Positions 1 through 46,546 of a DNA stretch of 64,000 bases are shown piece after piece. Each line of letters begins with the position of its first letter. The stretch's first letter is position 1. The position numbers and the translations under genes are program-made. Below the pieces are notes generated by a model that worked only from the letters and a program-made list of their open reading frames with translations, was not told where the DNA came from and made no database searches. The stretch comes from a virus: positions 1-64,000 of IMG/VR virus record IMGVR_UViG_3300029309_000013; one strand, given 5' to 3'.

Positions 1-53
1 CGCCGAGCTTGACTCGGAGGAAACGTAATAGTTGTTTTTTTTCTTTTTTTTTC

Positions 54-81
54 TTGACAAATCCCAATAGGGTGATACATT
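54..81 (+). promoter_or_regulatory. Early sigma70 promoter P1
   Basis: TTGACA 54-59, 16 bp spacer, TGa-TACATT 76-81. Confidence 0.8.
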
Positions 82-119
82 ACTAACACATTCAACAACA
101 ACATTGTCTTGGAGGACAA

Positions 120-434
120 ATGGCTAGAGTATCAAACGCACAAGTAATCAAAGCATTTCTTGCTGGCCGTGAAGCGCACAGCTTGAGCCTGACTTCTACT
201 TTCTACCCCCAGATGGGTACACTAGCTCCGCGAGGTTTCCTGCGGTCTTACAACCAACTAATCGCTCGTTATGATGAGGGCTGTGGCTTCTTGGTTTTCG
301 ATTTTACCTCATCTGGTGAGTATATTTCACAAACAACCTCAAAGCACGTTGGGATGGTAAAAAGACAACTTCCAGCAAAGTGTGTCATGCACCCCACCCA
401 AGCTAGACTTGGCGGTCTACTCGGAGATCAATAA
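120..434 (+). CDS. Hypothetical early phage protein (104 aa)
   Basis: GGAGG RBS after P1; stop TAA merges with the A-tract of the next repeat. Confidence 0.85.
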   Translation: MARVSNAQVIKAFLAGREAHSLSLTSTFYPQMGTLAPRGFLRSYNQLIARYDEGCGFLVFDFTSSGEYISQTTSKHVGMVKRQLPAKCVMHPTQARLGGLLGDQ

Positions 435-452
435 AAAAGTTTATCTTTTTAC

Positions 453-481
453 TTGACAACCTAAAACAAACATATTACATT
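453..481 (+). promoter_or_regulatory. Early sigma70 promoter P2
   Basis: TTGACA 453-458, 17 bp, TACATT 476-481. Confidence 0.9.
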
Positions 482-527
482 ATCATTGTAACCATTCAAC
501 AACAACAACAACAAACTGGAGGTCACT

Positions 528-686
528 ATGACCATCAATAGCTTCATTCAACATTCAAATCGTTTCCGTGGTTCATTCGAGGTCGTTATCGAAAAGAAAG
601 ACAAGTCAGGTAATGTGTCGCGTGAGGTCGTGCCCTGTCACAATCTTGCATCCGCCCGAACTACCCTGCGCCAGCGCACCAAGTAG
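528..686 (+). CDS. Small early protein (52 aa, MTINSFIQHSNRFRGSFEVV...), not in ORF track
   Basis: GGAGG RBS after (CAA)n leader of P2; open frame to TAG. Confidence 0.8.
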   Translation: MTINSFIQHSNRFRGSFEVVIEKKDKSGNVSREVVPCHNLASARTTLRQRTK

Positions 687-695
687 AGGTGATTT

Positions 696-1022
696 ATGAG
701 CGTAAAGCAGATAGCTAAAAAGCTCGATGAGATTGAGGACTACGGACTGTTTATGTTTATGTGGCAGTCCATCTCGGAGCTGCGCGACCCTAGCCTGATA
801 AAGGCTTGTCGCCCAGCCGTCCTAGCTAGAATAAACTCAATGAGCGACACCCGAACAAGCCAGATATACCGAGACATTGATACTGTCGGTGGCCTGTTTG
901 CCGATATAGTCGAGCGCAGACTAGAGATTGGCTTTGATGAGATCTTCCAGACCGAGCAGGAAGTATCAACTCCCAACTTGACCGTGATTGACGGTGGTCT
1001 AGCAAAATCTAAAGAAAAATAA
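696..1022 (+). CDS. Hypothetical early protein (108 aa)
   Basis: GAGGTG RBS; ends in the next promoter repeat. Confidence 0.8.
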   Translation: MSVKQIAKKLDEIEDYGLFMFMWQSISELRDPSLIKACRPAVLARINSMSDTRTSQIYRDIDTVGGLFADIVERRLEIGFDEIFQTEQEVSTPNLTVIDGGLAKSKEK

Positions 1023-1032
1023 GACTTTTTTC

Positions 1033-1060
1033 TTGACAAGCCCTGCTACCGTGATACGCT
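1033..1060 (+). promoter_or_regulatory. Early sigma70 promoter P3 (variant)
   Basis: TTGACA 1033-1038, 16 bp, TGa-TACGCT. Confidence 0.65.
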
Positions 1061-1087
1061 GTATATGTAATCAATAACGGAGATAAT

Positions 1088-1300
1088 ATGCAAGTCGGAG
1101 ACTTAGTAATGCTACCCTCATCACAGGGGTACATTGCCGAGCACCCACATTTGAAACTCATCGGTATCGTGACCAAGAAATGGGGTAGACTAGTGAACTA
1201 TCCCGATGGTGTCCGCGACCAAGAGTATGTGTGTGTGAGCTGGGCCAACGGTAATCAATGTGACTACAGGCCCGACTGGCTGGAGGTGCTATGCAAGTAG
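1088..1300 (+). CDS. Small SH3/KOW-like beta-barrel protein (MQVGDLV family, paralog 1)
   Basis: MxVGDLV...GIV...VxW...LEVL pattern; GGAG RBS. Confidence 0.75.
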   Translation: MQVGDLVMLPSSQGYIAEHPHLKLIGIVTKKWGRLVNYPDGVRDQEYVCVSWANGNQCDYRPDWLEVLCK

Positions 1301-1479
1301 GAGATTTAGTAAAGTACAGGGCTGGTCGCCCCGAAATGATCGGTGTCGTAATGAAACTATGGACTGAAACGCTCGGCCAGAACTGGGCACAAAAGAAGTA
1401 TCAAATGTGCAAAATCTACTGGAATGACCATTCAATGGGGTTTGTGCGACAAAAGAATGTGGAGGTGATTGATGGATAA
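1291..1479 (+). CDS. Small SH3/KOW-like protein (paralog 2)
   Basis: MQVGDLV...IGVV...IYW...VEVI; GGAGG RBS. Confidence 0.75.
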   Translation: MQVGDLVKYRAGRPEMIGVVMKLWTETLGQNWAQKKYQMCKIYWNDHSMGFVRQKNVEVIDG

Positions 1480-1708
1480 CATCGAGATTGGCGACTTAGT
1501 AAAACTTGGCCACATGGCATACGACTACAGCCCTAAACTTATCGGCATTGTGATGGACTATCGCGACCCCACCGAGGATGACGGAAGCGATTGCTCTCTC
1601 ATCGGTATCCGACAGTATCTCATTCAATGGTGCAACGGAGAGCAATGGGAGGAGGAAGCCGAATATATCGAGGTCATTGAAAAAAAAGAAAAAAACTTTG
1701 CCTTTTGA
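1472..1708 (+). CDS. Small SH3/KOW-like protein (paralog 3)
   Basis: IEIGDLV...IGIV...IQW...IEVI; GGAGG RBS. Confidence 0.75.
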   Translation: MDNIEIGDLVKLGHMAYDYSPKLIGIVMDYRDPTEDDGSDCSLIGIRQYLIQWCNGEQWEEEAEYIEVIEKKEKNFAF

Positions 1709-1709
1709 C

Positions 1710-1738
1710 TTGACAGTCTACTACCCCCGCGTTACATT
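1710..1738 (+). promoter_or_regulatory. Early sigma70 promoter P4
   Basis: TTGACA 1710-1715, 17 bp, TACATT 1733-1738. Confidence 0.9.
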
Positions 1739-1776
1739 ACTAACATAATCAACAACAACATTGTCTTGGAGGACAA

Positions 1777-2010
1777 ATGAACGCAGTAGTTTTATCAATA
1801 ATCACAGGCGCAGAAAATGATGTAACAGTATGGTCAAGCGAAGAGGAAGCCAAGGCATCAGCCGTTGAGTACCTCGCCCATTATGCGGATGGCTCCGAGT
1901 GTGATACCGCCGACTGGGGTTATGACGATTATGTCGAGTTTGCCGAGCTGTTCTACCACATTCAAACTCAAATCTCATTCCATCTACTTCCAACCAAGGG
2001 GAGCGAATGA
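1777..2010 (+). CDS. Small acidic early protein (77 aa)
   Basis: GGAGG RBS; leader nearly identical to that of P1. Confidence 0.8.
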   Translation: MNAVVLSIITGAENDVTVWSSEEEAKASAVEYLAHYADGSECDTADWGYDDYVEFAELFYHIQTQISFHLLPTKGSE

Positions 2011-2279
2011 TAGACAAAGACCGATTAGGTCGCCTCTTTGAGTTCATAACCCAAGAGTTTGTTTGCGGCCTAAACCGTCAGCACCTTGGTAAAAAGATAA
2101 TCTGCTACAGGCACTGGAGGCCCGATGAGCAAATATATTCACCGTACAGGCACTGGTCCAAAATCCATTGATTGGTGGACCGTCCTAGCTTCGACACTGA
2201 GATAATCGAGGTCATTCAAAAAAAGAAAAAAAGTTTATCTTTTTCCTTGACAGCTTCCTACTACCTTGTTACATTATGA
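2007..2279 (+). pseudogene. Probable SH3-like paralog interrupted by in-frame TGA (2169-2171)
   Basis: GGGGAG RBS, ATG overlapping the upstream stop; reads ...SKIH*LVDRPSFDTEIIEVIQKK, with the stop at the conserved Trp position; 3' DNA matches the end of ORF 1472-1708. Confidence 0.5.
2247..2275 (+). promoter_or_regulatory. Early sigma70 promoter P5
   Basis: TTGACA 2247-2252, 17 bp, TGtTACATT. Confidence 0.9.
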
Positions 2280-2305
2280 ACATAACCAACAACAACGGAG
2301 CCACA

Positions 2306-2470
2306 ATGAACCTTTTTGAATATATCGACAGTTGGGAGAAAGCCTTTGCCTTTTGGTTCTTCATAGTATGCTTAGCTTTCCTCGGTATTGTCCTAGGTAT
2401 GGGTCTTGAAAAACTGGGCGCATACGTCTTTCAAGACCTCCTTTATCCACTACTAACAACCACCCGATAA
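2306..2470 (+). CDS. Small membrane protein (54 aa)
   Basis: GGAG RBS; hydrophobic AFAFWFFIVCLAFLGIVLGMGL. Confidence 0.75.
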   Translation: MNLFEYIDSWEKAFAFWFFIVCLAFLGIVLGMGLEKLGAYVFQDLLYPLLTTTR

Positions 2471-2483
2471 TCTGGAGGTAGCT

Positions 2484-2750
2484 ATGCTCCACTATGATGG
2501 AATGACCCTGCACAATGTGACCCTGACCTTTACCGATGGTGAGGTGCTGGAGACACAGCTTTTCCTGAAAGATGACCAATCTCACGCGGAGCAGATGGAC
2601 TGGCTCTACGGTAGGTTTCTTGTCTCTTACGAGACAACCAAGGCAACCGAGAAGTGGGTAACCCATAAGAAGCTCTCTCAGGATGCTAAGAGAAGCCAAG
2701 ACCCGACTTGGGTATTGATGGCGACTACCCGACACTCTTTCAGTTTCTAA
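2484..2750 (+). CDS. Hypothetical early protein (88 aa)
   Basis: GGAGG RBS; stop merges with the next repeat. Confidence 0.8.
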   Translation: MLHYDGMTLHNVTLTFTDGEVLETQLFLKDDQSHAEQMDWLYGRFLVSYETTKATEKWVTHKKLSQDAKRSQDPTWVLMATTRHSFSF

Positions 2751-2770
2751 AAAAAAGTTTACCTTTTTTC

Positions 2771-2799
2771 TTGACAGCTAAAATATACCCTGTTACATT
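2771..2799 (+). promoter_or_regulatory. Early sigma70 promoter P6
   Basis: TTGACA 2771-2776, 17 bp, TGtTACATT. Confidence 0.9.
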
Positions 2800-2830
2800 A
2801 CTAGTGTAACCAACAACAAAGGAGAGACAG

Positions 2831-3037
2831 ATGACTGTACTGATTGAAAATCTTTTCACCTACCGAGAGCGATTGACCAATGGTGCTCAATCATTTCTAG
2901 CAATCCAATCCAACGAGCCGTGGGCCGATGGTGTCCAAGACCTAGTCAATATTATCTGTGATACTTGGAAAGTTGAAGAGCAGGATCTCGTCGTCGCAAT
3001 CCACGATGTGAAACATAACGCACCTGTCTGGGGCTGA
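2831..3037 (+). CDS. Hypothetical early protein (68 aa)
   Basis: AGGAG RBS; bounded by repeats. Confidence 0.8.
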   Translation: MTVLIENLFTYRERLTNGAQSFLAIQSNEPWADGVQDLVNIICDTWKVEEQDLVVAIHDVKHNAPVWG

Positions 3038-3056
3038 AAAAAGTTTATCTTTTTCC

Positions 3057-3085
3057 TTGACAGCTGATACAGACCTTGTTACATT
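3057..3085 (+). promoter_or_regulatory. Early sigma70 promoter P7
   Basis: TTGACA 3057-3062, 17 bp, TGtTACATT. Confidence 0.9.
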
Positions 3086-3115
3086 ATTAGAGAACAACAC
3101 AACAACGGAGAAACA

Positions 3116-3337
3116 ATGAACTCATTCTATAGCGTGCTTGTGGCCCTATGCCGAGCTAACCCTGACTTCGCCATTCAACTTCAACGCGATGCTAACTGGC
3201 TGTCCGACACCATCACAGTAGATGCTTTCGACATTCAGGACAACATTGATGCGATTGACCTTTTCGCGGAGCGGAGAGAATACGCACCCCTCTTCAAGAA
3301 GTTAGCAAAGGCCCAGCTTGCCGAGAGGGAACAATAA
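3116..3337 (+). CDS. Hypothetical early protein (73 aa)
   Basis: GGAG RBS; bounded by repeats. Confidence 0.8.
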   Translation: MNSFYSVLVALCRANPDFAIQLQRDANWLSDTITVDAFDIQDNIDAIDLFAERREYAPLFKKLAKAQLAEREQ

Positions 3338-3359
3338 TAAAAAAAGTTTATCCTTTTCC

Positions 3360-3388
3360 TTGACAGCCTAAAATCATCGTGTTACATT
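3360..3388 (+). promoter_or_regulatory. Early sigma70 promoter P8
   Basis: TTGACA 3360-3365, 17 bp, TGtTACATT. Confidence 0.9.
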
Positions 3389-3417
3389 ACTAGTGTAACC
3401 AACACAACGGAGACACA

Positions 3418-3588
3418 ATGCACAAAATCCAATGCTTAGAAAGCGGTGAGACAATGAACTGGTCGCTTGATATGATACTAGAGGAAATCAATAGGGACCG
3501 CTCAGAACAATGGACACCGTATGATGAAACGGACTGGCTGGACGGTTGGAGCAACTGGGTCGAAGGAGAGTTTTACAGCCTTATCTAA
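3418..3588 (+). CDS. Small acidic Trp-rich early protein (56 aa, MHKIQCLESGETMNWSLDMILEEINRDRS...), not in ORF track
   Basis: GGAG RBS; fills the space between P8 and P9 exactly. Confidence 0.85.
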   Translation: MHKIQCLESGETMNWSLDMILEEINRDRSEQWTPYDETDWLDGWSNWVEGEFYSLI

Positions 3589-3606
3589 AAAAGTTTATCT
3601 TTTTCC

Positions 3607-3635
3607 TTGACAGCTAAAACAAACCTTGTTACATT
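3607..3635 (+). promoter_or_regulatory. Early sigma70 promoter P9
   Basis: TTGACA 3607-3612, 17 bp, TGtTACATT. Confidence 0.9.
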
Positions 3636-3853
3636 ACTAACATAATCGAGACAACCCCTAACACCGAGGCCAAATGAAAATCCCCAGCTAAGGGCGAATG
3701 CGATGCCGAGTGAGAGCCAGCCCATTTCAAAATCTCACTATGAAAACACAACCGAGACAGTCACAGTGTAGTGACATCTCACTATCTCACAAACACCATC
3801 GGGGAAGTGGTGCTAGACTTCCCCACCTTTCATCCTCTCATCTGGAGCTTTCA

Positions 3854-4081
3854 ATGAAATACCAAGTCGGAGACACAATCGAATATATCATAGGTGATGG
3901 AAACACTAGACGCGTTTATGTCCAAAGTAGAGAAGCGGACATCAAAAATGGTCACCGTGGCTTCACTGGAGTGTTAGTAGACTTTGGTCAGTTTGATGCT
4001 GAACCAGAAAGCTACCTAGAGGTGTGGGGATACGACTACCAAATCGTTGCGGTGTTCAACAACCGCTATCGCCTGACCTGA
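3854..4081 (+). CDS. Small SH3/KOW-like protein (MKYQVGDTI..., 75 aa)
   Basis: GGAG RBS upstream of ATG 3854; more plausible start than 3698. Confidence 0.7.
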   Translation: MKYQVGDTIEYIIGDGNTRRVYVQSREADIKNGHRGFTGVLVDFGQFDAEPESYLEVWGYDYQIVAVFNNRYRLT

Positions 4082-4136
4082 TGTCACATCTCCGAGACCT
4101 AAAAAAAAAGTTTATGAACAAAGAGAGGAGGGTAGG

Positions 4137-4337
4137 ATGAAAACGATTACGATAGGACAAAAGGTAGTAAGCACAATAGCAGACTGTATAGAGACAGGAG
4201 AGATAATAGCTGGCTTCCTAGTAGATGCTAACATTCAGGACGGAATAGCTACAGTGATGCTATCTCAGTTAGATGATAACGGTGATGCTCAGCACGTACA
4301 GGTTCCCCTTGATACCCTTATCTATATAGATTATTGA
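4137..4337 (+). CDS. Small SH3-like protein (66 aa, ITIGQKV...)
   Basis: GGAGG RBS after the truncated repeat. Confidence 0.7.
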   Translation: MKTITIGQKVVSTIADCIETGEIIAGFLVDANIQDGIATVMLSQLDDNGDAQHVQVPLDTLIYIDY

Positions 4338-4344
4338 ATACTAC

Positions 4345-4785
4345 TACCCTAGCAGGAGGGCGTACCCCTATGCGATATGTGATAAAGCGCGTATGCAAGC
4401 GCGTGATATGTGGATGCGGACACCGCTTCACAGATAGCATTAGAAAGATTATTTTTTCAGGTTGAATGTGTCATAGCTCAGAACCCCTTTCTGGTTTGCC
4501 TGTGTTGGGTTGACTAGTCTATAGTGCAGCTCTAGTGCATCTGATTGCCTGACTGTTGGTGACTGGGTGTCAGTTATTGGGAGGTATCCCAACCCCTCAC
4601 AGGAAAACATTCAAGGACATTTTTTGACCGATTTACATTTTATTTGTACTCCTTTGTCGACGGCTCCTATGTCGACGTGATTATCGTGTGGTTCCGAGCG
4701 TGGTATCGGAATGGCTTGGGGGGTGTTAGCATTTGGTTATTGGCTAGCGCGCAACCCCCAAGTCTAAAGGAGCTAAACCACCTAG
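4345..4785 (+). ncRNA. Candidate structured non-coding RNA or structured DNA element
   Basis: No credible ORF; many nested inverted repeats with G-U pairs that fit the + strand. Confidence 0.4.
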
Positions 4786-4875
4786 AGCAAACGGCATACC
4801 CTGTTTAGGATAAGGTAGGATCTAAGGGGACTTTGGAGGACAGCAAAAAAAAGCAAAAAAAGTTTGCAAAAAAGC

Positions 4876-4904
4876 TTGACAGTCATTTTGGAACCTGTTA
4901 CATT
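4876..4904 (+). promoter_or_regulatory. Early sigma70 promoter P10
   Basis: TTGACA 4876-4881, 17 bp, TGtTACATT. Confidence 0.9.
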
Positions 4905-4934
4905 ATTAGCATAACCAACAAACAGGAGCTTCAG

Positions 4935-5150
4935 ATGCAGACTTTCTACTTCAGCTATCCACACTATCGTCTTGTTTCTAGCTATGGTCAGCCTAAGCGT
5001 TACGCGGACAAGGCAGAAATCGTCTGGGATTCAGTCCGCGCTCCGGACGTGGAAGCAGCCCGACAACTCATTTGGGAAATCCGAATGATTGACCCGCGCG
5101 AAGTCATCACAGCAGATGAGTGGCGACGAAAAGAAAAAAGATTTTTCTAA
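4935..5150 (+). CDS. Hypothetical early protein (71 aa, MQTFYFSYPHY...)
   Basis: AGGAG RBS; true start lies downstream of P10. Confidence 0.8.
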   Translation: MQTFYFSYPHYRLVSSYGQPKRYADKAEIVWDSVRAPDVEAARQLIWEIRMIDPREVITADEWRRKEKRFF

Positions 5151-5168
5151 AAAAGTTTGCCTTTTCAC

Positions 5169-5197
5169 TTGACAGCCATTTCATTCAACGTTACATT
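5169..5197 (+). promoter_or_regulatory. Early sigma70 promoter P11
   Basis: TTGACA 5169-5174, 17 bp, TACATT. Confidence 0.9.
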
Positions 5198-5225
5198 ACA
5201 GTGTAACCCTAACAACGGAGAGACA

Positions 5226-5318
5226 ATGCTTTTCCTTCTCGCTCTTTTCCTTCTCGTGTTCCTTCCCCTTTATGCCATTGCTGATGGTGCTAACAAAGCC
5301 ATCCAGAAAGGACGGTGA
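5226..5318 (+). CDS. 30-aa membrane microprotein (MLFLLALFLLVFLPLYAIADGANKAIQKGR)
   Basis: GGAG RBS after P11; one hydrophobic helix. Confidence 0.7.
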   Translation: MLFLLALFLLVFLPLYAIADGANKAIQKGR

Positions 5319-5321
5319 CGA

Positions 5322-5414
5322 ATGGCGATTATCGATTGTTTCATCATGGTCTTTGCCTGCCTTGGCTTCTACTATGCTATTGATAGCTTGCTATTGACCA
5401 TCGAGAAAAAATGA
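5322..5414 (+). CDS. 30-aa membrane microprotein (MAIIDCFIMVFACLGFYYAIDSLLLTIEKK)
   Basis: Follows the previous ORF by 3 nt; stop merges with the next repeat. Confidence 0.6.
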   Translation: MAIIDCFIMVFACLGFYYAIDSLLLTIEKK

Positions 5415-5433
5415 AAAAAGTTTGCCTTTTTGC

Positions 5434-5462
5434 TTGACGACCTAAAAAGAACCTGTTACATT
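5434..5462 (+). promoter_or_regulatory. Early sigma70 promoter P12
   Basis: TTGACG 5434-5439, 17 bp, TGtTACATT. Confidence 0.85.
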
Positions 5463-5508
5463 ATTAGTGTAGACAAAAACAATAACCTCTAACTCCTCGG
5501 AGTAATCT

Positions 5509-6132
5509 ATGACTATCTCTACCACTTCATTCATTCAAGCCGAACTCGAAGCACGTTTCGCAGGACACACTGAGCAAGGCCAGTATGCTCTCGAATGCGC
5601 AGACGTTGAAGAGCTTCGTAACTATCCTGCTGTTGATACCGCGTTGGCTGCCACCCATAAAACACTCGGTGCTGGTTACGTTATCTTCGAGGGCTTCCTC
5701 AACGGTTCGCACGTTGTTGTCTTTCAAGCTGAGACAGTAGACCGCGACCGACCTGGGCGGGATGGTAGGTTCATCTCTAAGTACACTGCAGCCGGTTATG
5801 TTTCTGATACCCTGAAGCAAGTGTGCGAGCACATCGGAGACACCGACGTTGTTGAGCGTGCTATCGATAGCTACGTGTACGTCGATGGTTTCAACTGGTA
5901 CGCCGCTAACCCTGATGCCCTCGTGGTCGACCGCCCTACCGCTACCTCAGCCCCGGTGTCCAACGTGACCCCTGTGCTAGAGCGTAAGCGACAGCGAGCA
6001 GTGGAGCGCGCCAAGGCTGCCGTCACCACTAACACGTTTGCCGAAGATGTCGAGGACAGTTTTTGTCCGGAGTGGATGGCCGGTGAGCTTGCCGAAGCGT
6101 GGAGCGACTACGAAACATTCGGTGACTTCTAA
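5509..6132 (+). CDS. Hypothetical early protein (207 aa)
   Basis: GGAG RBS; GC-rich codons, Arg mostly CGN. Confidence 0.85.
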   Translation: MTISTTSFIQAELEARFAGHTEQGQYALECADVEELRNYPAVDTALAATHKTLGAGYVIFEGFLNGSHVVVFQAETVDRDRPGRDGRFISKYTAAGYVSDTLKQVCEHIGDTDVVERAIDSYVYVDGFNWYAANPDALVVDRPTATSAPVSNVTPVLERKRQRAVERAKAAVTTNTFAEDVEDSFCPEWMAGELAEAWSDYETFGDF

Positions 6133-6134
6133 GA

Positions 6135-6358
6135 ACCCGAGCGGCTCGACATTGTAGCGACAGCCGAAACAAAACAAAACGAAACAGCAGCGTGGGGGGT
6201 CCTCCCCCTGCCCCCCGTCGGGGCGGTCAGATATTGTCCGAAATAAGTACTTGACAAGGGCGGCGCGCGCAATAAGCGAAGCGGGGTACATTCAATACGG
6301 CTACAAAATTTCCGAGATTTTTGGTTTTTAACTCATTTGAGTTAAGAGCCTTTTTTTG
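6135..6358. other. Palindrome/hairpin cluster at the compositional boundary (possible terminal-repeat end, pac site or injection-stop signal)
   Basis: CGAG-cgg-CTCG, G6-tcct-C5, GCCCC-ccgtc-GGGGC, AAAATTTCCGAGATTTT, TTAACTCA-tt-TGAGTTAA. Confidence 0.45.
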
Positions 6359-6425
6359 TGTTATAATTTACTATTTAATGCAGCAATGCCCTAAAAATTG
6401 CGGGAAAAAATTTTGGAGATTTAAC

Positions 6426-7430
6426 ATGAACATAACGAAAGAAAACCTTGTATCGATTATTAAAGAAGAGCTAGATAACGTACTGTCGGAACAAGAACCC
6501 ACGATTGATGAAAAGTGGGAGACTTACAGAGCAACAAGAACCCGTGAATGGGAAAATGCTATTGTTAAATCATTATTTGGAGATAATGAGCCAAGCAAAA
6601 GAGTATATGGCTATCCAGAAAGTCAAGACTTTCGCCAAGGCACTAAAAAAATTAGTGGTATGTTTTTTAATAAATTTGCGAGAGAGCGTTTTGCTAAAGA
6701 ACATGCAGATATTTGGAAGCCAGGATCAAATGATGTAGGATCATATGATGAAGTAAGGAAATTTGTTGTTGATTTAGGGAACGCTTTCTTTACACAAGCT
6801 CAAGTCAACACCCAGGACGGAGCACAACTTACACTTGACCAAGCATCACCGTCGGTAAGAGCAAGCGTTTTGCAATCAAGAGATAATGCCTTAAAGCGAA
6901 GCATAGAAATGATTGATCCACCAAGCAGCGGCACACAAAGCACTAGTGACTCAGGCGATAGAAAGAAAGCCGAGAATGATTACATGAGAGTGTTTAAGTT
7001 TTGGAACGGGGAAGATGAAACCATCAGCAAAATTGGCGGCAATGCTCCGCAGCCGATCACAGCTATCATTAAAGGAGCTTTTGACGTAGAAGACGAGGAT
7101 GCAAAACAAATTGGCTTTACGATATTGAACACTTTGGTTGCGAAAACAAAACCGACATTTAAGGACGGCAGCAGATATTCAGGCGAAAGATTTGGACAAA
7201 GCGATTTCATGAGAATGTTGGCCGACTTTGTGACCGGCGACGTTACTATCGGAAAAGCCGAAGAGCTTGAATGGAAAGAAGGTGAGTTTGAGAAGTACGT
7301 ATTGGGTGTGCTAAATAATATTGCCGACAGAAATCCGGAGCTACAAAAGCGCCGCAAGCAACAACAGGAACCGGAAGCAGAACGACCAAGTTTAAGACAA
7401 AGGTTCAGTAGGTTCTTAGGTAGATCATGA
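6426..7430 (+). CDS. Putative virion internal (head-packaged) protein
   Basis: GGAG RBS; N-terminal MNITKENLVSIIKEEL..LSE motif shared with other ORFs here. Confidence 0.6.
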   Translation: MNITKENLVSIIKEELDNVLSEQEPTIDEKWETYRATRTREWENAIVKSLFGDNEPSKRVYGYPESQDFRQGTKKISGMFFNKFARERFAKEHADIWKPGSNDVGSYDEVRKFVVDLGNAFFTQAQVNTQDGAQLTLDQASPSVRASVLQSRDNALKRSIEMIDPPSSGTQSTSDSGDRKKAENDYMRVFKFWNGEDETISKIGGNAPQPITAIIKGAFDVEDEDAKQIGFTILNTLVAKTKPTFKDGSRYSGERFGQSDFMRMLADFVTGDVTIGKAEELEWKEGEFEKYVLGVLNNIADRNPELQKRRKQQQEPEAERPSLRQRFSRFLGRS

Positions 7431-7504: not shown

Positions 7505-7544
7505 GCGTTATCACAAAACTCGAGTTTTTTGACAATTGTGCAAC

Positions 7545-7574
7545 AGCCCTCCTATTTATTCAGGAGGGTTTTTT
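7545..7574 (+). terminator. Intrinsic terminator / RBS-sequestering hairpin containing the late motif
   Basis: AGCCCTCCT-atttattc-AGGAGGGTT followed by a T-tract. Confidence 0.65.
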
Positions 7575-9137
7575 ATGTTGTGGTTATTTCTAGCTTTTAT
7601 TTCTTGTACGGATTATGGGGTCACTGCTGTTAAGTTAAGAGAACAAGATGTTCTTGCTTATCCCGATCATATAAATTTCGGGCACCTCATTGCTGGTGAC
7701 GAAAGTGACTCGGATAGCTTCGCCGTTATTAATACTGGTGATGAAGTGCTTACCGTGTATAGTGTGGATTTGATTTCAGGAAATAATCGTTTTGGCTTAA
7801 CTGGGCCTGAAGAAGATCGTTATATCATTGAGCCAGGAGAACACATCAGTTTCGATGTCGATTATACTCCTCAGACATTTGAGTCAAACGGTGCTTATGT
7901 TGAGATCACCTCTGATGACCCTGACGAACCAAAGGTTCGGGTCCATCTTGAGGGATATGGAGATGCTCCCGTTATTTCTGTTACACCAGAGGTAACCGAC
8001 TATGGAGATATATCTATCGGCTGTGATAACGAAGAAAGAATAACGATTCGCAACGAAGGCAATATGGATCTTGTTGTTAATGACGTTACCCAACTTGTTA
8101 CTCAACCTGTAGAGATCGTTATGGAGTTTGGTTCTCTTCCGCCTCCGCCTTGGACAATTCCTCCTAATCAAGAGTTAGATTTTCTTGTTTCTTATGTTCC
8201 TTTGGATATTGGTAGTGATCGGTCCGAGATTGAGATTGATTCTAACGATCCAACCAACGGACTTGTGCTTGTTACTCAAGAGGGACACGGCGATATTGAA
8301 CAATGGCACGTTGAAAACTGGGAGCAAGAGGATGTTCCTATCTTGGATATCTTGTGGGTTATCGATGATTCTGGTTCGATGTATCCATTTCAAAATGCTA
8401 TTGGTGTAAATGTCTCTGCTTTCTTTACAAATTTTTTAGCGTCTGCGCCTGACTATCACATGGCTGTTATTACTACGACTAGTCCTCACTTTGTTAACCA
8501 TACTTGGATTGATCAATATACGGTCTATCCTGCCCTTGAGCTTTCGCAAATGGTTACCGTGGGTATTATGGGCGCCGGTATGGAAAAGGGCCTTGAAATG
8601 GCCGCCTTGAGCCTCGCAAGCACTACGGCTGCTGGTCCCGGAGGATTATTTTTTAGGGACGAAGCTGCGCTGGTAGTAATTTGGGTCTCGGATGAGCCTG
8701 ATTGGTCCTCTAACACCTGGAGTTATTACGCCAACTTCTTTTCTAACTTGAAAGATCCCGGTATGTTTTATCCAATTGGTATTATTGGTGATGTTCCTGG
8801 TGGATGTGTATACAACTCTCCTCACGGTATTAGAAATGCACAAGCTGGTGCTGGATATTATGAACTTATAAATTATTTTTACGGTGATGTTTATTCAATA
8901 TGCGCTCAAGATTGGGGTAACCAAATGCAACGAGTGGCGAATAGTGTTGTTAATCGTATTTCATTCCGTCTAGCAAACGCTGATGTTATGGAATCATCCA
9001 TTGAAGTTAGAGTAAACGGACAAATTGTGACCGATTGGACTTTTGACGTTAATGCAAACGCCGTTAAGTTTGATCAAGGCGCTGTCCCAGATGCTGGTAA
9101 CACTATTGAAATCTCATATGCTACTTGGGGTTGCTAA
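7575..9137 (+). CDS. Lipoprotein with two Ig-like (choice-of-anchor D/ASH-type) repeats and a vWA-like domain
   Basis: Hydrophobic signal plus FISC lipobox-like Cys; two xFGx...NxG...SxDPxxP repeats; MIDAS-like DILWVIDDSGSM; VSDEPD. Confidence 0.8.
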   Translation: MLWLFLAFISCTDYGVTAVKLREQDVLAYPDHINFGHLIAGDESDSDSFAVINTGDEVLTVYSVDLISGNNRFGLTGPEEDRYIIEPGEHISFDVDYTPQTFESNGAYVEITSDDPDEPKVRVHLEGYGDAPVISVTPEVTDYGDISIGCDNEERITIRNEGNMDLVVNDVTQLVTQPVEIVMEFGSLPPPPWTIPPNQELDFLVSYVPLDIGSDRSEIEIDSNDPTNGLVLVTQEGHGDIEQWHVENWEQEDVPILDILWVIDDSGSMYPFQNAIGVNVSAFFTNFLASAPDYHMAVITTTSPHFVNHTWIDQYTVYPALELSQMVTVGIMGAGMEKGLEMAALSLASTTAAGPGGLFFRDEAALVVIWVSDEPDWSSNTWSYYANFFSNLKDPGMFYPIGIIGDVPGGCVYNSPHGIRNAQAGAGYYELINYFYGDVYSICAQDWGNQMQRVANSVVNRISFRLANADVMESSIEVRVNGQIVTDWTFDVNANAVKFDQGAVPDAGNTIEISYATWGC

Positions 9138-18960: not shown

Positions 18961-19117
18961 GCAAAAGCTTTGGCTTATCTTAGATGAGGCAGAGAAAAAA
19001 TTATCAAGAGCAAAACACATGGTCAACAAGTACGATGAATACTATGTTGAAGTAATTAACGCACTTGAGAAAGTAAAGATAGCAAAGGAAAAGCTAGAGA
19101 AAGAACTTGACATATAA
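18947..19117 (+). CDS. Small coiled-coil protein (56 aa, MGHHEQKLW...), not in ORF track
   Basis: GGAG RBS; fills the gap between neighbours. Confidence 0.6.
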   Translation: MGHHEQKLWLILDEAEKKLSRAKHMVNKYDEYYVEVINALEKVKIAKEKLEKELDI

Positions 19118-26841: not shown

Positions 26842-26870
26842 GATAGCATAAATTAGATAAGGTGTTTTTT

Positions 26871-28136
26871 ATGTCGAATAAGTTAAAAGTATTAACATTA
26901 AGTGACCATCCACTTTCCCCAAGTGGTGTTGGTACACAAACTAGGTATATTTGCGAGGCTTTATTAAAGTCTGGTAAATTTCAAATTATTTCTCTTGGTG
27001 GAGCGATAAAGCATCATAATTATGATCAAGTCTTTGTAGAGCCATATGATAAAGACTGGAAAGTAATCCCAGTTGACGGGTATGGTAATGCTGATATGAT
27101 TCGTTCCATTATTAGAAACGAGCGTCCTGATTTCGTATGGATGATGACCGACCCTCGTTTCTGGGAATGGTTGTGGGCGATTGAGAATGAGATCCGCCCC
27201 TTGTGTCCATTAGTATATTACCATGTTTGGGATAATTATCCATATCCTGAATTTAATAGGAAATACTATGAGTCAAATGACTATGTTGCGTGCATCTCTC
27301 GGCTAACTGCCGATTGTGTTCGCTCAGTGGCCCCAACTGTTCCCTCTTCTTATTTACCACACGCAGTAAACCAAGATGTCTTCAGGCCACTAACAAAGGC
27401 CCAGAGGTTTCAATTAAGAAAACAAAATCTTCACCCTGAAGATCAGGACAAATTTATTGTATTCTGGAACAACAGGAACGCTAGAAGAAAACAGTCCGGA
27501 ACTTTGATTTGGTGGTTTAAGGAATGGTTAGATAAAAATAACTTGCATGATAAAGCTCAATTGATTATGCATACGCACCCTAATGATCAACACGGCCAGG
27601 ATTTAAATAATATTGTAAGCCATTTGGGTTTAAATAATAGACAAGTCTTGTTCTCTACGGCTAAAGTTCCTTTGGAAAACATGGCGACTTTCTATAATCT
27701 AGCTGATGTTACAGTAAACATTTCTGATGCTGAGGGTTTTGGCCTTGCGACACTGGAGTCTCTGGCTTGTGGTACTCCAATTATTGCTACCTTAACTGGC
27801 GGACTACAAGAGCAAGTTCTGCATAAAGGGAAGTATTATGGAGTTGGGTTAAAACCTGTCTCAAAGGCTATTATTGGATCACAACAGGTCCCTTATATCT
27901 ATGAAGATAGGGTTTCCAAGAGTGATTTTCATAATGCTTTGACTAAGATGTATAGAATGGGTACAGACCGACGGCTAGAGCTTGGTATGAAAGGGCATGC
28001 GCACGTTACTAATAATTATAATTTTGAAAACTTTCAAAAGAAATGGGTTGACTTGATGCTTGATATTCATGAAAAAGAAGGCTCTTGGGAAACTAGAAAG
28101 GGCTATAGTAACATTACTTTTAAGGAGATTGTATGA
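26871..28136 (+). CDS. GT-B (GT4-like) glycosyltransferase
   Basis: RNARRK, EGFGLATLESLACGTPII. Confidence 0.88.
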   Translation: MSNKLKVLTLSDHPLSPSGVGTQTRYICEALLKSGKFQIISLGGAIKHHNYDQVFVEPYDKDWKVIPVDGYGNADMIRSIIRNERPDFVWMMTDPRFWEWLWAIENEIRPLCPLVYYHVWDNYPYPEFNRKYYESNDYVACISRLTADCVRSVAPTVPSSYLPHAVNQDVFRPLTKAQRFQLRKQNLHPEDQDKFIVFWNNRNARRKQSGTLIWWFKEWLDKNNLHDKAQLIMHTHPNDQHGQDLNNIVSHLGLNNRQVLFSTAKVPLENMATFYNLADVTVNISDAEGFGLATLESLACGTPIIATLTGGLQEQVLHKGKYYGVGLKPVSKAIIGSQQVPYIYEDRVSKSDFHNALTKMYRMGTDRRLELGMKGHAHVTNNYNFENFQKKWVDLMLDIHEKEGSWETRKGYSNITFKEIV

Positions 28137-29359
28137 AAAAGAATATTTTTATAAAAGGTCCATTTTTATCTCAAAGCGGATATGGTGAGCAAGCTAGGTT
28201 TGCCCTTAGAGCATTACGATCAAGAGAGGATATTTTCAACATTTATCTTCACCCAATTAACTGGGGCCAAACTGGCTGGGTATGGGAGGATACAGAATTC
28301 AGAAGATGGATTGATAAGAGAATTCTGCAAACTCAAATAGCGGCCCAAAATGGTACATTTAGACCAGATATCACACTACAGGTAACTATTCCCAATGAAT
28401 TCACTAAAATGTCTTCCCTTGATATTGGATTTACAGCAGGAATTGAAACAACAAAAGTATCTCCGCAATGGCTTCAAAAAGGTAACCAAATGGATAAAAT
28501 TCTAGTTGTATCAAATCATGCAAAAGTAACTTTTGAATCAACATCCGTTATATTACAAGACCAACTTAACAATCAGATACCTATTTCTCTAAAAACCCCA
28601 ATAGAGGTAGTATCTCAATGTACCCCAAAAGCCGCTGCTCAAGAGATTGATGAATTTGATTTACCGTATGATGATAACTTTTTAGTAATCTCACAGATGG
28701 GTCCACGTAAGAACTTTGAAAACACACTTAAATGGTTTGTTGAGGAATTTAAAAATGAGGAAGTTGGTCTACTAGTCAAGACTGGATTTAAATCAAACTG
28801 TAGGATGGACAGAGAACATACAGAGAATTTTCTTAAGTCTTTCTTGAGAGGTTATGAAGATAGAAAATGCAAGGTGCATCTTCTTCATGGAGACCTCTCA
28901 GATGGACAGATGAACTGGCTCTACAATCACCCTAAAATTACCGCATTAGTTAATATTGCCCACGGTGAAGGGTATGGTCTACCTTTATTTGAAGCGGCCC
29001 GAGAAGGACTTCCTGTGGCCACTATCGGTTGGTCTGGCCAGCTTGATTTTTTACATCATGATGGAAAAGATTACTTTGAAAAGGTTGAATTTACACTCGG
29101 ACCAGTACAACAAGAGGCGGTCTGGGATGGTGTTGTGCAAGCTGACTCTATGTGGGCTTATGCTAATGAAGACTCTTATAAAAAGACCTTGCGGTCATTG
29201 ATTATAAATAATGAAAGTGCAAGAACTAGAGCTTCTGAACTTAAGCAGATTATTGAAAATAATTTCTCTGATGAAAGACTGTACGAATTATTTGTTAGCA
29301 AGATCATTCAGGAAGATAATTTTGAGACTGTAGATGTTGGACTAATGTTTGAGGAGTAA
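28133..29359 (+). CDS. GT-B (GT4-like) glycosyltransferase
   Basis: SGYG, RKN, GEGYGLPLFEAA. Confidence 0.85.
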   Translation: MKKNIFIKGPFLSQSGYGEQARFALRALRSREDIFNIYLHPINWGQTGWVWEDTEFRRWIDKRILQTQIAAQNGTFRPDITLQVTIPNEFTKMSSLDIGFTAGIETTKVSPQWLQKGNQMDKILVVSNHAKVTFESTSVILQDQLNNQIPISLKTPIEVVSQCTPKAAAQEIDEFDLPYDDNFLVISQMGPRKNFENTLKWFVEEFKNEEVGLLVKTGFKSNCRMDREHTENFLKSFLRGYEDRKCKVHLLHGDLSDGQMNWLYNHPKITALVNIAHGEGYGLPLFEAAREGLPVATIGWSGQLDFLHHDGKDYFEKVEFTLGPVQQEAVWDGVVQADSMWAYANEDSYKKTLRSLIINNESARTRASELKQIIENNFSDERLYELFVSKIIQEDNFETVDVGLMFEE

Positions 29360-29365
29360 TAAAAG

Positions 29366-30985
29366 ATGAAAAAAGATTTAGTTAGTATTGTGATCCCAAC
29401 TTACAATGATGCTCAATATCTAAGGCAAGCTGTTGATGATATTTTGAACCAAACATACGAGGATTTTGAACTTATTATAGTCAATGACGGATCAACAGAT
29501 AATACAGTAGAAATACTCGAAGAATACTCTACCATAGACTCTAGGGTCAAAGTGTTTCACAAAGAAAACGGAGGCACTGGCTCGGCTTTGAATTTAGGAT
29601 TTAGCAAGGCCACCGGTGAGTTTGGTACCTGGGTTTCTTCTGATGATAATAAAGAGACAAATTTTATTGAAGAGTTGGTTTCATTTTTGAAAAAAAACCG
29701 GGATGTTGAGTTTGTTTGCTCTGCTTTTTACAGTAATTATCTGAAATCTATTTTTAAGCCATACAAGAAAGAGAACGACAGATTTGTTTTCTGTAATGGC
29801 TTAAATCATAATTCTTTTCTATCTGGTGAATCAATAATTGTTGATGACTGGGCCGACATTAATTATGAGGCATGCTTTCAAGGTGTATGTTTTATGTTTA
29901 CTATGAGATTAAAGAACGCTTGTGGTGATTACATCGAAATCCCCGGAGAAGACTATTACATGACTATGCTTATGGGTCTTAATTCAAGAATTGGATATGT
30001 TGATAAAATGCTCGGTACTCACAATAATCCTGTTGACTCTTTATCAATGATGGATCGGAACTGTGTGGCTGAAGCGAACGTAAAAACCAGGAGTCTTTAT
30101 TTGAACTCTAAAAGATGGAAGATGAATAAAATACCAAAGATCGCCAGTTTTTATTGGGGATCTGATAAAATGTCTTTCATGAGGTATCTCACGATTTTTT
30201 CGTTCAAAAAACAAAACCCAGACTGGTCAATACACTTGTATGTTCCAAAAAGTGTTTCTGATAGTATTTCATGGCTAGATAAAGGAGCAGATAATCACCA
30301 TAAGTGTGATCAAGTTTCCTATGAAGGTCAAGACTATTACGAAAAACTATTAAATGATGTTCCGGTAAAAGTTATTAAAGTTGATTTTTCAAATTCTTTC
30401 TTAACGAAAGAGGCCCCAGAGCCTCATAAATCAGATCTGTTAACATGGCAGGTTTTAGCTACTAGAGGCGGCTTATGGTGCGATATGGACATCATATTTC
30501 GTAAGTCAATGGTTACTATGTTTCGTAAGTATGATAGTAGTGCTGATACTGTTTTATGTTACGATAATCGCCTAAAATGTCCAGATGGAACGCCCTCAAA
30601 GCCAATTGGCTTTATGTTATCTGCCCCCAAGAATAGATTTTTCAATAAAGCTCTTGTGGAAAGCAAAAAGAATTATGATGACCGCTCTTATCAAAGTATA
30701 GGCACAGTCACGCTTATGAGGATTGGTCGTACTATAAGAGAATGCGAGAGACTTTATAATCTTAACAAGTTTGAAAACATAGACCCAGAGGATATTTATT
30801 ATTTTCATCATCAAATGATGGATGATATTTACAATAAATCACTAGAAATACCAGAAAAATTAATTGCTATTCACTGGTATGGGGGCCACCCCTTAAGTCA
30901 AAAATTCAATAACAACATAAATCATGAAAATTATTTAGAATTCGATAATACAATTTCTAAAATTATAAAAGAGGTGATGTCTTGA
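29366..30985 (+). CDS. GT2 glycosyltransferase fused to a DxD (GT32-like) glycosyltransferase
   Basis: SIVIPTYN..VNDGSTD..N.G; second domain FYW..SD..GGLWCDMD. Confidence 0.85.
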   Translation: MKKDLVSIVIPTYNDAQYLRQAVDDILNQTYEDFELIIVNDGSTDNTVEILEEYSTIDSRVKVFHKENGGTGSALNLGFSKATGEFGTWVSSDDNKETNFIEELVSFLKKNRDVEFVCSAFYSNYLKSIFKPYKKENDRFVFCNGLNHNSFLSGESIIVDDWADINYEACFQGVCFMFTMRLKNACGDYIEIPGEDYYMTMLMGLNSRIGYVDKMLGTHNNPVDSLSMMDRNCVAEANVKTRSLYLNSKRWKMNKIPKIASFYWGSDKMSFMRYLTIFSFKKQNPDWSIHLYVPKSVSDSISWLDKGADNHHKCDQVSYEGQDYYEKLLNDVPVKVIKVDFSNSFLTKEAPEPHKSDLLTWQVLATRGGLWCDMDIIFRKSMVTMFRKYDSSADTVLCYDNRLKCPDGTPSKPIGFMLSAPKNRFFNKALVESKKNYDDRSYQSIGTVTLMRIGRTIRECERLYNLNKFENIDPEDIYYFHHQMMDDIYNKSLEIPEKLIAIHWYGGHPLSQKFNNNINHENYLEFDNTISKIIKEVMS

Positions 30986-36891: not shown

Positions 36892-38072
36892 GCGGTCCTT
36901 TTGATCAGAGTAGCATCGCGGATGATAAAGCATTAAATCTACAGTTGAAAGAATTAACGGTAGACTTAATTTATGATAACTATTACAGTAAATTCAAGAA
37001 TAAATCTGTTTTTAAGGCAGTGATATTGTCTGGTTATGTTACTGGTAATGCAACTGTTGATGACCCTGGTGATGCTGATCCTGCGACTTTTCCTAAGAAA
37101 TATAAACTAAGACCAATAGAGATACATGATCTGTTTTTACCAGATCCTTTAGAAGTAAAAGAAAATTCAGAGAACAGCTTCTTGCAGTTTAAACGTCTAG
37201 TGAAGCTACATCCATTCGGTTTCCCGGAAATGGATATAGAAAATAACGCCAAAGCACAATATGTTTATGGTGATATAGTAACGTTTAGATTTGAAGAGGG
37301 TCCGTCAAGTAGGGGTTTCCTTAGATCAATAAGGATAATTCAAAAGGTTGACCATGTAACTGGACTCTTGCCTTTTCAAAAAACCCTAGGGTCAATTACG
37401 TATGAACCAGGCGCCAAGGATGCGTTAGATAATGGTGGTGCCACAACAGCTGCTGAAGCCAAGAGAGAAAAAGATGCTACACCATCGGAGACAAGCAGCA
37501 CTGGTCATAGAGTTTCGTGGTCAGCAAAGCCGGGAGTTGTACTCACCACTGCCGCACAAAGAAATTTTTTAGATAATTTAACCAAGAGGTTATCAAAAAC
37601 CTCTTGGTCTAAAACATTAATAGTAAACAGTGGAACCAGATCTCCCAGTGCACAAATGAGAGCGATCATCAAGCAGTATGATAAAAGAGCATCCTGGTTC
37701 GACGATAAATATAAGAAATGGACGCCATACCGATCTGAAATTAAAAAAATATTGCAAAATAAAAGTATAGATAGAATAAAGACTGGAGCAGATGTTATTA
37801 GAAAAGCTATAAGTGCAGGTAGATATATGTCCCTCCACAATATTGGTCTTGCGGTTGATATTCAAACTATAAATTTTACTTACAATGAAGTAGTGGCTCT
37901 TCTAAAGGTAATAAGAGACATGCAGCAACCAACATATGTACGTTGGGAAAATATTGAAGGTAAGCGCAACACTCAATCAATGGAGAAGCGCAGATCAGGT
38001 ACCGTTAAATCCATTGCCTACGAGCACCTCCATATAGGACTTTCAAATATTGTCGATAAGGAAGATGAATAA
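36888..38072 (+). CDS. Baseplate-hub-associated protein with C-terminal M15/Hedgehog-like zinc peptidase
   Basis: NSGTRS..Q, SLHNIGLAVDI, EHLHI; lies before the spike and gp25 genes. Confidence 0.7.
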   Translation: MSGPFDQSSIADDKALNLQLKELTVDLIYDNYYSKFKNKSVFKAVILSGYVTGNATVDDPGDADPATFPKKYKLRPIEIHDLFLPDPLEVKENSENSFLQFKRLVKLHPFGFPEMDIENNAKAQYVYGDIVTFRFEEGPSSRGFLRSIRIIQKVDHVTGLLPFQKTLGSITYEPGAKDALDNGGATTAAEAKREKDATPSETSSTGHRVSWSAKPGVVLTTAAQRNFLDNLTKRLSKTSWSKTLIVNSGTRSPSAQMRAIIKQYDKRASWFDDKYKKWTPYRSEIKKILQNKSIDRIKTGADVIRKAISAGRYMSLHNIGLAVDIQTINFTYNEVVALLKVIRDMQQPTYVRWENIEGKRNTQSMEKRRSGTVKSIAYEHLHIGLSNIVDKEDE

Positions 38073-39100
38073 TGTTTCCAGATAAAAATAGCATCAGTGA
38101 AGCCGGAAAAACAGTAGACGGCTATTACATAGACTCTCAGGAGCTTGTCCCTGTGGGGGCCACCCCTGAGATAGAAAAACAAATCCAACAACGAATTGAT
38201 GATGGTCTTGTGATGAGTGGTCAATATTTGACCAAAGATGTTGATGATATACCTGTGTTTGGGCCACTTGGAGATTGTGAAATAGTATTCGCTAGGAAGG
38301 TTAGCAAGAAAGGACATCAAGGTTCAAGAATTGTGTTAACAAGGGATAACTATGGACATCGCGGCACTGGCTTTGGTGGTATGGGAGCAACACGCTGTGA
38401 GGCAATTGATATTGTTGCTGGATCTTTGACCGGTGAAGAGAATAAAAAAAACTCAACAATCCAAGCTCGAGCTAGCTTTATTAATGATGCTGCTAGAATA
38501 TATCTCACTGAGAGAGGCGATATTCAAAGGTACTTTGGACTACCAGTTGAAAACAGATCCAATTGTTCGGTATCTTCTCTTAATAAATCTGGTATAGGCA
38601 TTAAGGCTGATCATACCGCTATTATTGGTAGAGAGAAGATAACAATTTATGCTGGCTTTGCTGTTAATGCTGACGGTAAAGAGAATCTGACCAGCTTTTC
38701 CGAGTCACCACGTCCAAGAATTGAATTATCTACTGGTGCATCAAAAGGAACACAACCAGCAGTCCTTGGTAACAATCTGGAGGATGCGATAATAGTAGCA
38801 AGATCTGAAAGAGAAGGTTTATTAAAAAAGATACAAGAAATAGAAACAAGTCTTGTTAAACTGTACATCGCTTTAGGGGCACATACCCACCCAGTAGTTG
38901 CTCTTGGTGGCGGTGTAGCATTACCGTCACCTGACTTGATTGGTAATGTTGTGCAAAAATTCCCAGAGTATGGTAAGAAAACAGTCACCAACACAATTGA
39001 TCTGATTAATCAACAGATTGAAGCACTAAACTCAAACGGCTTGACTATAGCAAAGGGCGGAAAAGCACTAACCAGTGATTCTGTATTTATTGGAGATTAA
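38072..39100 (+). CDS. Putative baseplate central spike (gp5-C/gpV-like)
   Basis: IDIVAG, DAARIY, IKAD..I.GRE, PAVLG..L, HTHP tip motif. Confidence 0.65.
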   Translation: MFPDKNSISEAGKTVDGYYIDSQELVPVGATPEIEKQIQQRIDDGLVMSGQYLTKDVDDIPVFGPLGDCEIVFARKVSKKGHQGSRIVLTRDNYGHRGTGFGGMGATRCEAIDIVAGSLTGEENKKNSTIQARASFINDAARIYLTERGDIQRYFGLPVENRSNCSVSSLNKSGIGIKADHTAIIGREKITIYAGFAVNADGKENLTSFSESPRPRIELSTGASKGTQPAVLGNNLEDAIIVARSEREGLLKKIQEIETSLVKLYIALGAHTHPVVALGGGVALPSPDLIGNVVQKFPEYGKKTVTNTIDLINQQIEALNSNGLTIAKGGKALTSDSVFIGD

Positions 39101-39102
39101 AG

Positions 39103-46128: not shown

Positions 46129-46129
46129 T

Positions 46130-46504: not shown

Positions 46505-46546
46505 GAAACGCCTCAAAGAACTATTTAAATTTACGAGGGACTATGG

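Follow-up and report, generated by a model that had tools for sequence, protein, structure and literature searches.

The viral contig IMGVR_UViG_3300029309_000013 (G000) is linear, 79,313 base pairs (bp) long and rated 44% complete by CheckV, and it occurs in sequencing runs of marine, seawater or estuary metagenomes. The window analysed here, 64,000 bp in length, comprises its bases 1-64000. At the start of the window lies a compact module of small genes and strong promoters, and this segment, positions 1-6306, contains not a single AATT or TTAA; it is referred to below as the zone, and its features are collected in Table 1. The promoters share one layout, composed of an A-tract upstream element AAAAAAGTTT, TTGACA, a spacer of 17 nucleotides (nt) and (TG)TTACATT. 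Downstream of each promoter there is a CAACAACAAC-type leader followed by a GGAG(G) ribosome-binding site, and each precedes one or a few small open reading frames (ORFs) on the + strand. The zone ends in a non-coding boundary region, 14 nt past the last conserved element of that region. The first well-conserved gene downstream of the zone encodes a predicted lipoprotein of 533 amino acids (aa). Marine metagenomes, Tara among them, contain hundreds of its homologues (50-95% identical), and the gene was used as the anchor for finding relatives.

Table 1. Positions of the zone, its elements and their counterparts in related contigs (rc, reverse complement; G000 window where no contig is named).
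Feature	Position	Strand	Remark
Right-hand part of the palindrome-purged early zone, truncated by the contig start	1..6306	+	
Array of at least 11 near-identical strong promoters	29..5470	+	sigma-70-type
-35 box starts	54, 453, 1710, 2247, 2771, 3057, 3360, 3607, 4876, 5169, 5434	+	
About 21 small early ORFs (30-207 aa)	120..6132	+	
Five very acidic ORFs (isoelectric point 4.1-4.5, net charge -8 to -17)	1469-1708, 1777-2010, 3418-3588, 4137-4337, 5509-6132	+	
CGAAAC(A) direct repeats, conserved non-coding boundary region	6165..6190	+	
GGGGGGTCCTCCCCC hairpin (GGGGGG-N4-CCCCCC)	6194..6208	+	candidate early terminator or entry-stop element
Conserved element: TAAGTACTTGACAA, ~30 nt, GGTACATT	6244..6292	+	candidate factor-dependent (non-early) promoter
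First nine AATT/TTAA sites	6307..6463 (157 bp)	+	start of normal word usage
Conserved palindrome TTAACTCATTTGAGTTAA	6328-6345	+	among the first nine AATT/TTAA sites
533-aa predicted lipoprotein (conserved N-terminal Cys; Ig-like/DUF1573, precomputed Pfam hits)	7536..9137	+	
Shuffled early ORFs	window 120-4081; G001rc 37617-47289		
G6-N4-C6 hairpin counterparts	G001rc 49052; G007rc 50828; G010 26020		
MoxR-type AAA+ ATPase	G001 L144:2827-3888	-	inside zone, adjoins DUF2201/VWA
DUF2201 metallopeptidase/VWA protein	G001 L144:1485-2702	-	inside zone

An earlier note on this DNA had described 1-6306 as free of AATT and TTAA, with a sharp boundary and with the remaining 14 palindromic tetramers all present. 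A recount agreed on every point: both words number 0 by direct count, the 14 others all occur, and the first AATT stands at 6307 and the first TTAA at 6328. The whole 64-kb window holds 532 AATT and 486 TTAA. For 1-6306, base composition predicts 33 copies of each word, a dinucleotide model 35.5 AATT and 31.9 TTAA, and a maximal-order Markov model of the zone 23.4 and 18.2, respectively. A synonymous-codon shuffle of the approximately 21 ORFs (n = 2000), in which the proteins and the codon usage of the zone were kept and intergenic DNA was left unchanged, gave an expectation of 15.0 +/- 3.1 AATT and 11.0 +/- 2.7 TTAA, and the lowest counts over the 2000 shuffles were 4 and 2. With late-gene codon usage the expected numbers are 31.5 and 22.8. 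At positions 6307-79313 the observed/expected ratios are 1.02 for AATT and 1.00 for TTAA, and elsewhere in the 79-kb contig the longest run lacking both words measures 646 bp. The G+C content is 46% in the zone and 37% in the remainder. The purge is real, exceeds what codon and oligonucleotide bias produce, and is stronger than first noted.

Other words are partly lost from 1-6306, namely CATG (3 observed, 28 expected), GATC (5 and 26), CCGG (5 and 16), GANTC (2 and 18) and CCNGG (2 and 14). These are 3- to 9-fold low solely in the zone and not in the remainder of G000. Non-palindromic tetramers made only of A and T occur in the zone at 0.7-1.5 of expectation, and its 6.3 kb contain 55 A/T-only runs of at least 6 nt. 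Outside the zone (6307-79313) the word TGNCA is more than 4-fold low, with 46 copies against 199 expected and all four variants affected; inside it has 22 copies, of which 13 are TGACA, at least 11 of these in the TTGACA -35 boxes. We know of no characterised enzyme with a TGNCA site.

Megablast of positions 1-6400 against GenBank phages gave no match, the nearest isolates being about 30-47% identical and in single genes only, and a scan of viral contigs for the promoter pattern returned single, mostly chance matches. Relatives were reached through an alignment of homologues of the 533-aa protein; that gene alone as query found none among viral contigs. A homologue is carried by 38 viral contigs, one of which, G001 (64,021 bp; 55% identical in that gene), shares the feature. 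The zone of G001 free of AATT and TTAA spans 18,889 bp, is internal to the contig and has edges sharp to about 20 bp for both words at both ends, with AATT at 0 against 67 expected and TTAA at 0 against 61. Observed and expected counts of further words in this zone are 26 and 93 for CATG, 44 and 93 for GATC, 19 and 61 for TATA, 4 and 44 for GANTC, and 20 and 41 for CCNGG. On top of this zone-limited purge, AGCT is absent from all 64,021 bp of G001, where about 181 copies are expected. Because the G001 counterpart is so much longer, the zone of G000 is truncated at the contig end, and to judge from this comparison 1-6306 is about one third, the distal one, of the full zone.

A distant homologue of the first early ORF led to a second relative, G007 (57 kb). 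Its zone of about 17-19 kb occupies the same syntenic place and has AGCT at 1 observed against 47 expected, ACGT at 1 against 36, CGCG at 0 against 17, GCGC at 1 against 17, GANTC at 0 against 34 and CCNGG at 1 against 19, with AATT and TTAA merely mildly low. Further relatives were sought with the conserved DUF2201/VWA gene of the zone as query. Among 47 loci of at least 10 kb, 29 have at least one purged palindromic tetramer, and in 23 of these the word persists in another part of the piece. G011 and G012 belong to the AATT/TTAA type, both words being entirely lost in G000, G001, G011 and G012. The most complete relative, G010 (191,495 bp, CheckV-rated 100% complete, with a tail baseplate gene), has exactly one zone, at about 5.6-27 kb, without CTAG, GGNCC and CCNGG. 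Its stretches free of GGNCC and CCNGG measure 20-21 kb, CTAG counts 0, and elsewhere in the genome the gaps next in length for the three words span 4-7.5 kb; eight 20-kb pieces from outside the zone were all without a purge. In G010, 115 of 116 ORFs of at least 150 aa lie on one strand, as does every such ORF in G000, G001 and G007; a one-directional genome of about 190 kb is unusual for a tailed phage with a baseplate. The same depletion, which the earlier note had proposed to look for in related phages, is thus present at the same place, for AATT and TTAA in G001 and for other words in G007 and G010.

No zone was found in G004 (289 kb), whose neighbour gene is 55% identical, or in the two cultured phages whose terminase is the nearest, Flavobacterium phage immuto and Microcystis phage Mel-JY01, which have no zone VWA gene either. 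In Mel-JY01 (PP395634.1) CTAG and GATC are both absent over 190 kb, a genome-wide purge.

The MoxR ATPase and DUF2201/VWA genes of the zone are 63-67% identical among G001, G007 and G010, and the flanking polymerase and GroEL genes are alike in this respect. Since the two zone genes have diverged as much as these flanking core genes, the zone has been inherited vertically, with the purge evolving in place. G007 and G010 both keep the pair, and N4-like phages have it in distant form. The small early ORFs of G000 and G001 are 73-94% identical in amino-acid sequence, with their order shuffled, against about 55% identity for the downstream genes. An exchange of early cassettes seems to have taken place, perhaps by recombination at the repeated promoters.

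The zones of G001 and G007 have the same promoter type, with about 27 such promoters in G007. The G that splits the A- and T-tracts of these promoters had been attributed to avoidance of AATT. The split is there, but the G in AAAAAAGTTT is not explained by AATT avoidance alone, because AAAAAAGTTT is also found in G007, whose zone tolerates AATT. In G000, G001, G007 and G010 the G6-N4-C6 hairpin is present in one copy per genome, near the right end of the zone. After the hairpin, the element composed of TAAGTACTT, about 30 nt and TACATT differs from the early promoters and is common to four phages with different purge sets. The left edge of the zone lies about 25 nt upstream of the first zone gene, just past a conserved gene for a trypsin-like protease. 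This first gene starts 4-5 nt after a TAGATA -10-like box, without a ribosome-binding site (G001rc 30259-30297; G012 near 19599), and its transcript may be leaderless. Beyond the zone, the TACATT -10 box (TGTTACATT) recurs at 19107, 72239 and 72968, with spacers that carry AATT or TTAA. The use of this box in both parts indicates that the zone and the remainder belong to one phage. A chimeric assembly, named by the earlier note as a possible refutation, was rejected on the grounds of this shared box, the junction kept in G001 and the same layout in independent contigs.

Within the dense array, about 480 nt (4345-4830) have no credible ORF, and a scan of 1-7000 against Rfam found no family. Pfam had no match for the nine zone ORFs of G000 tested, and a protein atlas search with the 207-aa acidic ORF returned nothing usable. 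Over the zone ORFs tested in G000 and G001 against Pfam and PHROG, matches were limited to the MoxR ATPase, DUF2201/VWA and a zinc finger.

In order to identify what reads these words, the depleted classes were compared over six zones. An observed/expected ratio below 0.35 was found for 24 tetramer classes, all of them palindromes, and for not one of the 120 non-palindromic classes. As the strongly depleted words are all palindromic, they point to dimeric type II enzymes acting on double-stranded DNA. The word set changes while the zone stays put, which fits varying host restriction repertoires better than a conserved phage nuclease. The losses have the form known from avoidance of type II enzymes, being short palindromes that are lost by synonymous changes and that vary between lineages. 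From this we infer that host type II restriction enzymes are the readers of the purged words. Methylation of the motifs AATT, TTAA, CGCG, AGCT, GATC and GANTC occurs in marine prokaryotes (PMC8919816). The proposal that the segment is exposed to a reader of AATT and TTAA while the remainder is shielded is therefore supported in its core, and narrowed to type II restriction-like enzymes. Because there is genome-wide avoidance too (AGCT in G001, TGNCA in G000), restriction pressure is real, and some enzymes are not covered by the zone-limited arrangement.

A mechanism can be proposed for the purge of one segment only. Positions 1-6306 would be the distal third of a 17-21-kb early zone, devoted to host takeover, in a clade of uncultured marine phages, and unmodified host RNA polymerase would transcribe this zone from its dense, strong sigma-70-type promoters. 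Selection would strip the zone of short palindromes cut by the type II restriction enzymes of the hosts; in the lineage of G000 and G001 this would have removed AATT and TTAA wholly and GANTC, CATG, GATC, CCNGG and CCGG in part. The remainder would keep the words, being unexposed while the enzymes are active. It could enter later, in a staged or transcription-coupled manner as in T5 and T7. Alternatively, the products of the small zone genes could protect it by the time of its exposure. A purge of one tenth of the genome is useful only if that tenth alone meets the enzymes, and ordered entry with early anti-restriction is the known way to achieve this. The architecture fits leading or early DNA, because the host-type promoters are co-oriented, the genome is one-stranded in its coding, the hairpin at the right edge is single-copy and is accompanied by a conserved promoter-like element of another kind, and the left edge falls at the first gene. 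Overall, we consider it likely that the early zone was purged by host type II restriction and that the remainder is not exposed while these enzymes are active. The zone would then be the leading DNA, with early products that protect the remainder, and staged entry is plausible. A fuller version is put forward tentatively, as a possibility we would not yet favour: a widespread clade of one-directional marine phages of about 190 kb with two-stage uptake, a leading segment of 17-21 kb, a hairpin acting as entry stop or terminator, dozens of small proteins with broad type II inhibitors among them, and a word list that reads the host repertoire.

Several observations weigh against purging of a leading segment. 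The contigs of G001, G007, G010, G011 and G012 continue across zone boundaries, a read-through that is as compatible with a circularly permuted genome as with a collapsed long terminal repeat. The nearest match of the G010 large terminase is to enzymes of the T4 gp17 type. T4 gp17 packages by headful with random ends, and with such packaging a purged leading segment would bring no benefit. The zone ORFs tested, part of the full set of small ORFs, yielded no homologue of T5 A1/A2, Ocr, ArdA or any known anti-restriction protein. In G007 some purged words reappear 2-4 kb before the boundary hairpin, and edge sharpness is thus uneven. Finally, a crude test of unrelated viral loci, in which pieces of at least 10 kb were scored when a palindromic tetramer was missing for at least 4 kb yet present elsewhere in the piece, found piece-limited purges in 8 of 48; this clade is therefore not alone in having the pattern, and uncultured phages may commonly carry segment-limited purges.

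Other explanations concern either the reader of the words or the reason why the remainder is spared. The phage's own early nuclease or nucleases could cut AATT and TTAA, destroying host DNA at a time when the zone alone has entered the cell, and the zone would survive because it lacks the sites. The complete loss of both words in four related contigs would suit this explanation, and how the first-step-transfer DNA of T5 escapes the A1-dependent degradation of host DNA is an open question (PMC10644984). However, the purged words differ among homologous zones, which fits varying hosts better, and a search of the available genome fragments found no EcoRI-like nuclease (PF02963), the sole PHROG-annotated 'endonuclease' being the repair enzyme UvdE. 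With words that vary by lineage and a remainder at expectation, a phage nuclease or terminase as reader, one of the options raised earlier, is improbable. This explanation would need staged entry too, and it competes with host restriction only on the identity of the reader.

It is equally improbable that the whole genome enters at once and that the remainder is shielded, either by site-specific modification or by co-injected coating proteins that would hinder host RNA polymerase. The zone could not bear such a shield and would depend on the lack of sites for its safety. The T4-like terminase, which hints at headful packaging, and the assemblies that span both zone boundaries are in line with such shielding, as are three consecutive glycosyltransferase genes at 26862-30985, one of which matches Pfam 'GT4 in conflict systems'. 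On the other hand, DNA methyltransferases of the two commonest families (PF01555 and PF02086) were not found in G000, G001 and G007, which are fragments, and promoters with a TACATT box are predicted outside the zone as well. We know of no phage modification that spares one tenth of a genome, and this counts against shielding.

We regard it as very improbable that the zone is a recent foreign module, taken from a donor phage that avoids the words genome-wide and keeping an inherited composition without current selection. The difference in G+C content and the exchange of early cassettes would agree with this origin. Against it, the zone has the same syntenic place in G001, G007 and G010, with MoxR/VWA diverged like the flanking core genes; the zone of G001 shares the total AGCT avoidance of that genome; one promoter type serves inside and outside; and the non-coding right boundary is conserved across different purge sets. 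Moreover, 0 sites against 128 expected over 18.9 kb cannot persist without selection. The least probable explanation is selection on early RNA, by an endoribonuclease or toxin acting at AAUU and UUAA, or H-NS/Lsr2-type silencers reading A/T-rich DNA: the zone limits do roughly match an early transcription unit, from the first gene to about 100 nt past the hairpin, and the zone is the richer part in G+C, but RNA-level selection does not predict purely palindromic losses, there is no strand-asymmetric depletion of non-palindromic words, and the silencers suggested earlier are rejected by the normal counts of A/T-only non-palindromes and A/T-only runs and by the purge of the G+C-containing words CGCG, GCGC, GGNCC and CCNGG in relatives.

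If purging by host restriction is accepted, sequence alone, without data on termini, allows a proposal of which segment of an uncultured phage is exposed first and probably also of where its genome ends lie. The list of purged words indicates the restriction specificities of the host population and could aid in linking phages to hosts through methylome data; if the two-stage reading is true, the purged words of each phage are a direct reading of its host's restriction repertoire. As about 1,300 AATT/TTAA sites are tolerated outside the zone, the phage must have a very effective way of neutralising or evading 4-bp cutters, and the small zone ORFs offer a focused set in which to seek anti-restriction proteins. 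To our knowledge, the way in which T5 shields its second-step DNA against restriction is still unexplained, and the class of broad type II inhibitors has not been identified even in T5.

Among known systems, genome-wide avoidance of restriction sites in phages (PMC6286503) also removes short palindromes by silent changes, and AGCT in G001, TGNCA in G000, and CTAG and GATC in cyanophage Mel-JY01 are comparable with it. In contrast, the marine zone is about one tenth of the genome, has sharp edges and lies atop a different, genome-wide avoidance. In conjugative plasmids the leading region (PMC13478746) is likewise first-entering DNA, rich in anti-defence genes and higher in G+C than the remainder. 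However, according to the same study a shortage of 4-8-bp palindromes is not a consistent property of plasmid leading regions (PMC13478746), whereas in the marine zone the depletion is complete for some words. With T7-like phages the marine phages share a one-directional genome, strong promoters for the host polymerase at what would be the leading end and, closing the early region, a terminator, for which the marine hairpin is a candidate. In T7-like phages sites in the first-injected DNA set restriction sensitivity, and anti-defence genes are expected there (PMC12455610); in Murciavirus, restriction by the Mme2I type I system acts only via sites in the first-injected region (PMC12455610). T7-like genomes measure about 40 kb, their early region takes up a few kb and single type I sites matter in them, in contrast to a marine zone of 17-21 kb that is purged of type II tetramers. 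A T7-type RNA polymerase (PF00940) had no match in the marine fragments, where a control search was equally silent.

There is a further likeness to T5 and BF23 (Tequintavirus), whose first-step-transfer (pre-early) block, in the long terminal repeat, makes up about 8-11% of the genome; small takeover genes lie in it behind strong host promoters, and a long non-coding region rich in repeats and hairpins marks its border. In T5-like phages, restriction acts only if the site lies in the first-step-transfer DNA (PMC10644984). Dense small genes behind strong host-polymerase promoters are found in the zones of G000, G001 and G007. In the T5 first-step-transfer block 37 of 64 hexamer palindromes are absent, against 19-27 in equal-sized windows, but there is no purge of tetramers (AATT 82 against 102 expected), whereas the marine zones lose two to six words of 4-5 bp; sites are missing from the segment and present elsewhere, as in T5, and the effect is much stronger. 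The marine phages also differ in that the tested zone ORFs of G000 and G001 gave no homologues of A1, A2 or dmp, and in being uncultured phages of about 190 kb with one-directional genes and a T4-like terminase. The terminal repeat and the two-step transfer belong to T5 and would be predictions for the marine phages. At the bench, T5-like and T7-like phages have already established that restriction selects hardest on first-injected DNA, and the present comparison suggests that the same principle shapes large marine phages, much more strongly.

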